5,072 bases of DNA from a virus (Duplodnaviria; Heunggongvirae; Uroviricota; Caudoviricetes): the IMG/VR virus record IMGVR_UViG_2675903425_000026; one strand, 5' to 3'. This document shows, piece after piece, positions 3,177-3,273 of this stretch. How positions within the stretch are numbered: position 1 is the first letter of the stretch; each line of letters opens with the position of its first letter. A program made the translations under genes and the position numbers. The notes under the pieces were generated by a model, which saw nothing but the letters and a program-made list of their open reading frames with translations, did not search any database and was not told where the DNA came from.

Positions 3177-3273
3177 ACCTTCCTCGGTTTAGTGTTTTTT
3201 TGCGAGTTTAGTGTTTAATAAACCATTAAGTCAAGTATTTGCTTGTTTAGTGATTACTAAAGATAATTACCAC
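3177..3273. promoter_or_regulatory. Divergent promoter/operator region (OR-like) between the cro-like and repressor genes
   Basis: Three direct copies of GTTTAGTG (3187-3194, 3206-3213, 3245-3252). Near-perfect palindrome GTTTAATAAAC (3213-3223). Minus-strand TTGACT (rc of 3229-3234), 18-nt spacer, TAAACT (rc of 3205-3210), oriented toward the cro-like gene. Plus-strand GATAAT (3262-3267) ends 6 nt before the repressor ATG at 3274, with a weak -35 TTGCTT at 3239-3244. Confidence 0.6.

Follow-up and report, generated by a model that had tools for sequence, protein, structure and literature searches.

Lambda OR contains three 17-bp dyads located approximately 23-24 bp apart. These operators are common to the repressor and Cro and are situated between the divergent cI and cro genes, which have back-to-back promoters; the repressor mRNA that originates from PRM is leaderless, a second set of operators is located at PL, and the cII activator acts at PRE, within or after cro. 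Apart from the number, length and spacing of the dyads, these features have their counterparts in the locus described here. The Rac prophage of E. coli K-12 (RacR/YdaS/YdaT) also shares the order of a repressor gene, a divergent ydaS-ydaT pair and replication genes. Its YdaS and YdaT belong to the same Pfam families, but the proteins of CP-933P are only 26% and 31% identical, respectively, to those of Rac (PMC8630535). The closest described system is the switch of the cryptic prophage CP-933P (PMC8630535, PMC9986795), which is the same DNA: the 97-bp control region, the leaderless paaR2 and the half-site GTTTAGTAA are as published.

The CP-933P locus was studied by Jurenas et al. (mBio 2021; PMC8630535). 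In electrophoretic mobility shift assays (EMSA), PaaR2 and YdaS each shift the 97-bp fragment stepwise, and by DNase I footprinting PaaR2 protects approximately 78 continuous bp whereas YdaS protects 27 and 32 bp, with PRM occupied first. Both PR and PRM are repressed by PaaR2 and by YdaS in GFP reporter fusions, PR more strongly by PaaR2, and PRM more strongly and at lower concentration by YdaS. EMSA, footprints and reporters alike describe a shared multipartite operator bound by both regulators, and the published experiments on the locus also include stop-codon mutants (PMC8630535). Low PaaR2 apparently activates PRM, an observation that rests on leaky expression in the reporter assay. PL933P is repressed approximately 100-fold by PaaR2 or YdaS, and the locus is bistable, in that PaaR2 and YdaS give two heritable expression states (PMC8630535).

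Identity and gene content of the window

The window, by which we mean the whole 5,072-base stretch of DNA that was analyzed, corresponds to the immunity region of CP-933P, a cryptic prophage of E. coli O157:H7 that is called Sp12 in the Sakai strain. All 21 of the 21 locus-specific primers taken from Table S3 of PMC8630535 match it exactly. EMSA primers FL1 and FL2 correspond to 3177-3196 on the plus strand and 3252-3273 on the minus strand, and the published EMSA probe is exactly 3177-3273, the ydaS-paaR2 intergenic control region (OR933P). The footprint probe of the same study maps to 3135-3323, and its PRM/PR, PL and PRE reporter fragments map to 3201-3274, 4138-4255 and 2849-2968, respectively. 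Positions 2800-4400 match many E. coli O157:H7 chromosomes at 100% identity and phage Evi at 98.3%, and the RefSeq annotation of one identical O157:H7 chromosome shows the same genes as the window. In a separate comparison with O157:H7 strain TR01, positions 1-2724, carrying the replication genes and the 3' part of ydaT, are 98.3% identical and positions 2775-5072 are 100% identical.

The open reading frames and Pfam domains of the window give the gene content of a lambdoid early region. On the minus strand are genes for a DnaC/IstB-like ATPase (753-1493) and an O-like replication protein (1500-2477), followed by ydaT (2485-2877) and ydaS (2874-3176). A run of 50 Ns at 2725-2774 interrupts ydaT. 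Strain TR01 has 83 bases opposite this run and its YdaT is 141 aa compared with 130, and therefore the run does not preserve length. The ydaS gene encodes a Cro-like helix-turn-helix regulator (Pfam YdaS_toxin and HTH_3) that matches PDB entries 8c7k and 8co2, which were deposited as 'antirepressor protein Cro'. On the plus strand, paaR2 (3274-3645; primer F-1-PaaR2 maps at 3274) encodes a CI-like repressor of 123 aa and is followed by paaA2 (3666-3857; Pfam PaaA2) and parE2 (3859-4137; Pfam ParE_toxin), a toxin-antitoxin pair that is co-transcribed with paaR2 (PMC8630535). Unlike lambda, CP-933P has a toxin-antitoxin pair in place of rexAB. A scan of the whole window against Rfam at gathering thresholds found no RNA family.

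PaaR2 has an N-terminal helix-turn-helix domain, and its residues 1-71 are matched by PDB entries 7nkv, 8c3k and 8c3l. The protein has no Pfam match, and no C-terminal S24 peptidase domain (PF00717) was found in it; its C-terminal half aligns only with short repressors, whereas relatives of 208-215 aa carry PF00717. This is a further departure from lambda, as PaaR2 is without an S24 autocleavage domain and is reported to be unresponsive to mitomycin C (PMC8630535). In addition, the CP-933P proteins have no recognizable resemblance in sequence to CI, Cro or CII. Gene callers often extend paaR2 upstream to a GTG at 3211 (3211-3645, plus strand, 144 aa; proteins P0001 and P0002), and the clusters of these extended proteins hold 231 and 153 member sequences. 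Since the true ATG is not preceded by a Shine-Dalgarno sequence, the extended reading frame runs through the operators; N-terminal sequencing gives MQKKE, and therefore the 123-aa protein is the real form.

Searching the literature with PDB codes 7NKV, 8C3K, 8C3L, 8C7K and 8CO2 returned only unrelated papers, and the operator strings returned nothing relevant beyond PMC8630535.

Promoters and operator dyads at OR and OL

The divergent repressor and cro-like genes are separated by a short spacer that contains back-to-back sigma-70 promoters. PRM933P (3239-3267, plus strand) consists of the -35 hexamer TTGCTT at 3239-3244, a 17-bp spacer and the -10 hexamer GATAAT at 3262-3267, which is followed by TACCAC and then the paaR2 ATG at 3274. 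PR933P (3205-3234, minus strand) drives ydaS-ydaT and consists of TTGACT at 3234-3229, an 18-bp spacer and TAAACT at 3210-3205; a consensus promoter scan also detects PR, and this cro-side promoter is the one proposed in the initial annotation. The two -35 hexamers are back to back, 4 bp apart. The PR start would fall at approximately 3198, and the PRM and PR starts would lie approximately 76 bp apart. A strong Shine-Dalgarno sequence, GAGGAAGG, precedes ydaS and is the reverse complement of 3178-3185. At paaR2, as the initial annotation had noted, GATAAT ends 6 nt before the ATG with no Shine-Dalgarno upstream, and no GGAG-like motif is present in the 16 nt before the start codon. The leaderless repressor mRNA that was suggested on this basis is borne out by experiment: the PRM start mapped by 5' RACE coincides with the paaR2 start codon, a leaderless paaR2 construct is translated, the N-terminal sequence MQKKE was obtained together with the expected intact mass, and the mapped starts agree with the predicted PR933P and PRM933P (PMC8630535).

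Three exact copies of GTTTAGTG had been pointed out in the control region, and they are indeed present at 3187-3194, 3206-3213 and 3245-3252 on the plus strand; neither strand of the window has any other exact copy. When one mismatch is allowed, the only further plus-strand copies in regulatory regions are at 4209 and 4231, and a repeat search places all five, these two and the three exact ones, in a single family. The palindrome GTTTAATAAAC is likewise present at 3213-3223.

We built a symmetrized weight matrix from homologous loci only, with the window excluded. The matrix consensus, GTTTAGTAATTACTAAAC, agrees with the published half-site, and against a null in which the 95th-percentile maximum is 10.8 bits per 5 kb, only four sites in the window are significant, two at OR and two at OL. 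The best match in the window is the 18-bp dyad GTTTAGTGTTTAATAAAC at 3206-3223 (23.0 bits), which covers the PR spacer and -10 and contains the 11-bp palindrome; the second OR site is GTTTAGTGATTACTAAAG at 3245-3262 (20.2 bits), which fills the PRM spacer. Published work describes four equally spaced 18-bp inverted repeats (IRs) with half-site consensus GTTTAGTAA, of which IR2 and IR4 each lack one half, and places a well-conserved palindrome over PRM933P (PMC8630535). Overlapping 'pseudosymmetrical' operators OR1-3 are described there too, along with OL1-3 at PL. By our own mapping, 3206-3223 is IR3 and 3245-3262 is IR1, whereas IR4 would be 3187-3204, a half-site GTTTAGTGT with a non-matching right half (-0.04 bits), and IR2 is inferred to be a degenerate dyad at 3226-3243 that spans both -35 hexamers. 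The hexamer, start-site and IR coordinates used here are our own; with the IRs starting at 3187, 3206, 3226 and 3245, successive starts are separated by 19, 20 and 19 bp. The sequence of 3187-3197 is identical to that of 3206-3216, suggesting a local duplication, and within the inferred ydaS transcript the 3187 half-site occupies approximately positions +4 to +11, ahead of the ydaS Shine-Dalgarno sequence. Unlike lambda, the CP-933P operator thus comprises two strong 18-bp dyads 39 bp apart together with weak half-sites.

Downstream of the repressor operon is a second operator cluster, OL/PL (4209-4249), which is part of the same system and was not mentioned when 3177-3273 was first annotated. 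PL933P, on the plus strand, reads rightwards, away from parE2, and is composed of TTGACT at 4222-4227, a 16-bp spacer and TAAACT at 4244-4249. Its -35 and -10 hexamers are reported to be identical to those of PR (PMC8630535), and this is how they read in the window. Two dyads overlap PL, GTTTAGTTTTTACTTGAC at 4209-4226 (12.9 bits) and GTTTAATGTTTATTAAAC at 4231-4248 (19.4 bits), so that 18-bp inverted repeats of the published half-site type are found at both OR and PL. At PR and PL the -10 hexamer TAAACT is formed by the operator half-site plus one T, a further difference from lambda, and therefore operator occupancy and -10 recognition exclude each other.

Other features were noted close to these operators. 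The first is a possible fifth site within ydaS at 3145-3162 (CTTAATGATTTAATAAAC), which was rejected: its score of 8.0 bits is below the null of 10.8, and relatives show nothing operator-like at the matching codons. It lies in a 21-nt inverted match between 3145-3165 and 3210-3230 (18 of 21 positions), which includes an exact TTTAATAAAC in ydaS codons 5-8. Between the parE2 stop and OL is an imperfect hairpin at 4156-4202 (ACATAACAACCGCAACG...CGTTGTGTTTGTTATGT) with 22-nt arms that are 82% complementary; it is a candidate operon terminator, but a T-run directly after it is lacking. Downstream of PL are overlapping open reading frames on opposite strands, one at 4433-4789 (plus), which matches phrog_21318 (E = 3.9e-67), and one at 4568-4774 (minus), which encodes a Cys-rich zinc-ribbon-like protein with the RefSeq name 'ECs_2282 family'. 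No N-like antiterminator was identified downstream of PL in the window.

The possibility that the repeats are chance similarities without function was considered. The region is 69% A+T, and if one mismatch is allowed GTTTAGTG occurs 7 times in the window compared with 3.4 expected, a count reached by 10 of 200 shuffles. Against this, the repeats exceed chance: only 109 of 20,000 mononucleotide shuffles of the 97 bp contained an 8-mer at least 3 times, a figure inflated by T-runs. Moreover, the exact copies are confined to 3177-3273, the sites score far higher with the matrix than the null does and are conserved in several bacterial orders, and binding is shown directly by the published footprints (PMC8630535), which already refute a chance origin; we give it almost no weight.

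The YdaT operator is located elsewhere. YdaT gives a DNase I footprint on TTGATT-N6-AATCAA (Prolic-Kalinsek et al., Acta Cryst D 2023; PMC9986795), and the operator OM, TTGATTTTCATGAATCAA, is found as an exact match, unique in the window, at 2867-2884, where it straddles the overlap of the ydaS stop and ydaT start in the PRE933P region. A plus-strand TACAAT at 2906-2911, which lacks a good -35, might serve as the -10 hexamer in an activator-dependent PRE. The initial annotation had nominated the products of 3274-3645, 2874-3176 and 2485-2877 as regulators of the 97-bp fragment. The first two, PaaR2 and YdaS, do regulate it, but the third does not, as YdaT has no effect on PRM, PR or PL and instead activates PRE933P (PMC8630535).

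Homology to phage Tritos is lost at 2893 and returns at 4260, and ten other phage records match only the flanks. Recombination boundaries at 2893/2894 and 4259/4260 thus bracket ydaS, OR, paaR2-paaA2-parE2 and OL/PL as one exchangeable immunity cassette with flanking homology. The YdaT operator falls in the shared left flank, outside the cassette, and the right boundary is approximately 10 nt after the PL -10.

Conservation of the dyads and of the leaderless start

Scanning one genome per species yielded 64 loci encoding a PaaR2-type N-domain, distributed among Enterobacterales, Orbales, Pasteurellales, Burkholderiales, Neisseriales and Nitrosomonadales. Among PaaR2 relatives, conservation is high over the first ~58 residues (22 invariant positions among 20 aligned sequences), and the C-terminal half is PaaR2-like in some and an S24 peptidase domain in others. 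In 53 of the 64 loci, a YdaS homologue lies next to the repressor gene in divergent orientation. When sequenced phages were searched by tblastn with the PaaR2 N-domain, no classical model phage was matched; clear matches were phage Evi, one Klebsiella phage and two Burkholderia phages, and there was one further weak Klebsiella match at 29% identity. Across the loci collected here (L004-L067; for example L023, L031, L044 and L052), the DNA-binding domain, a YdaS-like partner and the two-dyad, two-promoter core are kept, over a range that reaches from Enterobacterales to Burkholderiales and Nitrosomonas.

Upstream of the repressor gene, the DNA of these loci shows striking similarity, and the whole promoter-operator core aligns in 41 of the 64. 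Conservation was scored in 31 non-redundant sequences, comprising 30 homologous loci and the window. Positions that are at least 90% conserved are 3205-3210 (AGTTTA), 3217 together with 3219-3223 (A.TAAAC), 3230-3235 (GTCAAG, the PR -35), 3238-3244 (TTTGCTT, the PRM -35), 3246-3247, 3258-3260, and -10 positions 2, 4 and 6 (3263, 3265 and 3267). At the 3206-3223 dyad, conservation of 3205-3210 and 3219-3223 is at least 94%; 3248-3249, which adjoin 3246-3247, reach 87%, and the paaR2 ATG is conserved at 84-87%. No conservation is seen in the dyad centers, in the 6 bp that separate dyad and -35, at 3196-3204 or in the 6 nt from the -10 to the ATG. This pattern is a phylogenetic footprint of two dyads and two promoters.

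The initial annotation had described an operator made of direct repeats plus a palindrome. That an operator is present stands, but its architecture does not, as the GTTTAGTG copies are left half-sites of 18-bp dyads: the outer GTTTA-N8-TAAAC dyad is intact in 26 of 30 non-redundant relatives, compared with only 8 of 30 for the 11-bp palindrome. In the earlier architecture, the GTTTAGTG repeats would be bound head to tail and the 11-bp GTTTAATAAAC would be a separate site for a second protein. Three exact 8-mers in the same orientation speak for such a model, and the PL of the window also has GTTTATTAAAC at 4238-4248. The excess of intact dyads over intact palindromes argues against it, as does the 3187 copy, which is missing from most relatives and is flanked by unconserved columns. 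Furthermore, 3206-3223 is the reverse complement of the majority form GTTTATTAAACACTAAAC, and therefore the orientation of the dyad appears irrelevant, as anticipated for the site of a symmetric dimer. Taken together, we regard head-to-tail binding as improbable and favor the 18-bp dyad as the operator unit.

In other loci, matrix matches of at least 12 bits are found almost only at OR and at one downstream OL-like place. Those at OR lie immediately upstream of the repressor gene and usually number two, spaced 38-39 bp apart; the OL analogue is a single downstream place at variable distance and is present in most homologous loci. These data also bear on whether the repeats might be a conventional autoregulation operator for PaaA2 or the PaaA2-ParE2 complex, as the palindromes upstream of classical type II toxin-antitoxin operons are autoregulation sites and paaA2-parE2 is immediately downstream in the same operon. 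Elsewhere, the same operator core precedes S24-type repressors, and several loci have their OL-like site only ~450-500 bp from the repressor start, which would leave little room for a toxin-antitoxin pair. PaaA2 itself has PF21217 (PaaA2 stability determinant) as its only Pfam match and lacks a DNA-binding domain, in agreement with the literature, and the regulators of the locus are PaaR2, YdaS and YdaT (PMC8630535). Toxin-antitoxin autoregulation is therefore a highly implausible account of these sites, and we retain the dyads as targets of PaaR2 and YdaS.

The leaderless arrangement extends beyond CP-933P. The repressor ATG is located 5-7 nt after the -10 in 30 of the 41 aligned loci, and exactly 6 nt after it in 26. 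Loci of Photorhabdus and Xenorhabdus have leaders of 54-85 nt instead, and those of Pasteurellaceae and Gilliamella have leaders too, often with a GGAG-type Shine-Dalgarno sequence. This distribution of spacings and leaders suggests that the leaderless arrangement is ancestral to much of the family, in line with what was published for paaR2. Our literature search found no description of family-wide conservation of the operator and of the leaderless start.

The CP-933P switch and its relatives

We consider, with a probability of roughly 0.93, that 3177-3273 is the rightward operator (OR) in the lambdoid immunity switch of the cryptic prophage CP-933P/Sp12. In this switch, transcription from PRM begins at the A of the paaR2 start codon and gives a leaderless paaR2-paaA2-parE2 mRNA, and PR drives ydaS-ydaT on the minus strand, with CI-like PaaR2 and Cro-like YdaS competing for the same 18-bp dyads. 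The 3206-3223 dyad supplies the PR -10 from its own half-site, such that occupancy would shut PR, and occupancy of 3245-3262, in the PRM spacer, would shut PRM. At the sequence level the dyads overlap both promoters, and the early suggestion that a bound protein would occlude the promoter beneath it agrees with the finding that PaaR2 and YdaS footprint the region and repress both divergent promoters (PMC8630535). The two strong dyads are presumably the primary sites, with the 3187 half-site and the degenerate site at ~3226 filled cooperatively. Such gap-filling fits the PaaR2 footprint of ~78 bp, as the span from 3187 to 3262 is 76 bp. The input of YdaT enters via PRE. The conserved difference between ACTAATC and ACTAAAC may help PaaR2 and YdaS to rank the two dyads, any base-resolution preference of each protein for one dyad being a prediction of ours, and a PaaR2 octamer could conceivably loop OR to OL. 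Given that CP-933P is defective, its switch has lost its part in the choice between lysis and lysogeny.

The feature is real, and its main reading is correct and already known from published experiments on the same fragment. A reading from sequence alone recovered an experimentally verified switch, including the leaderless repressor mRNA, and serves as a positive control. What is new here is comparative: the conserved units are the 18-bp dyads and not the 8-mers or the 11-bp palindrome, and the leaderless arrangement is a family-wide property. As published, ~11% of complete E. coli genomes (593 of 5426) hold the system, in which a bistable lambda-like switch controls a ParE-type toxin-antitoxin pair.

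More tentatively, and at somewhat less than an even chance for all of its parts together, the CP-933P operator may be one copy of an unusually conserved, portable regulatory cassette. Such a cassette would consist of a YdaS-like Cro, two GTTTA-N8-TAAAC dyads 38-39 bp apart, back-to-back -35 hexamers and a start codon 6 nt after the -10, and would combine the same ~58-aa DNA-binding domain with either an S24 autocleavage domain or a PaaR2-type oligomerization domain. It would have spread among Enterobacterales, Orbales, Burkholderiales and Nitrosomonadales, and in modified form in Pasteurellales. Because the dyad keeps its sequence in either orientation and IR1 keeps its ACTAATC half-site, how PaaR2 and YdaS discriminate between dyads could become testable across this family.
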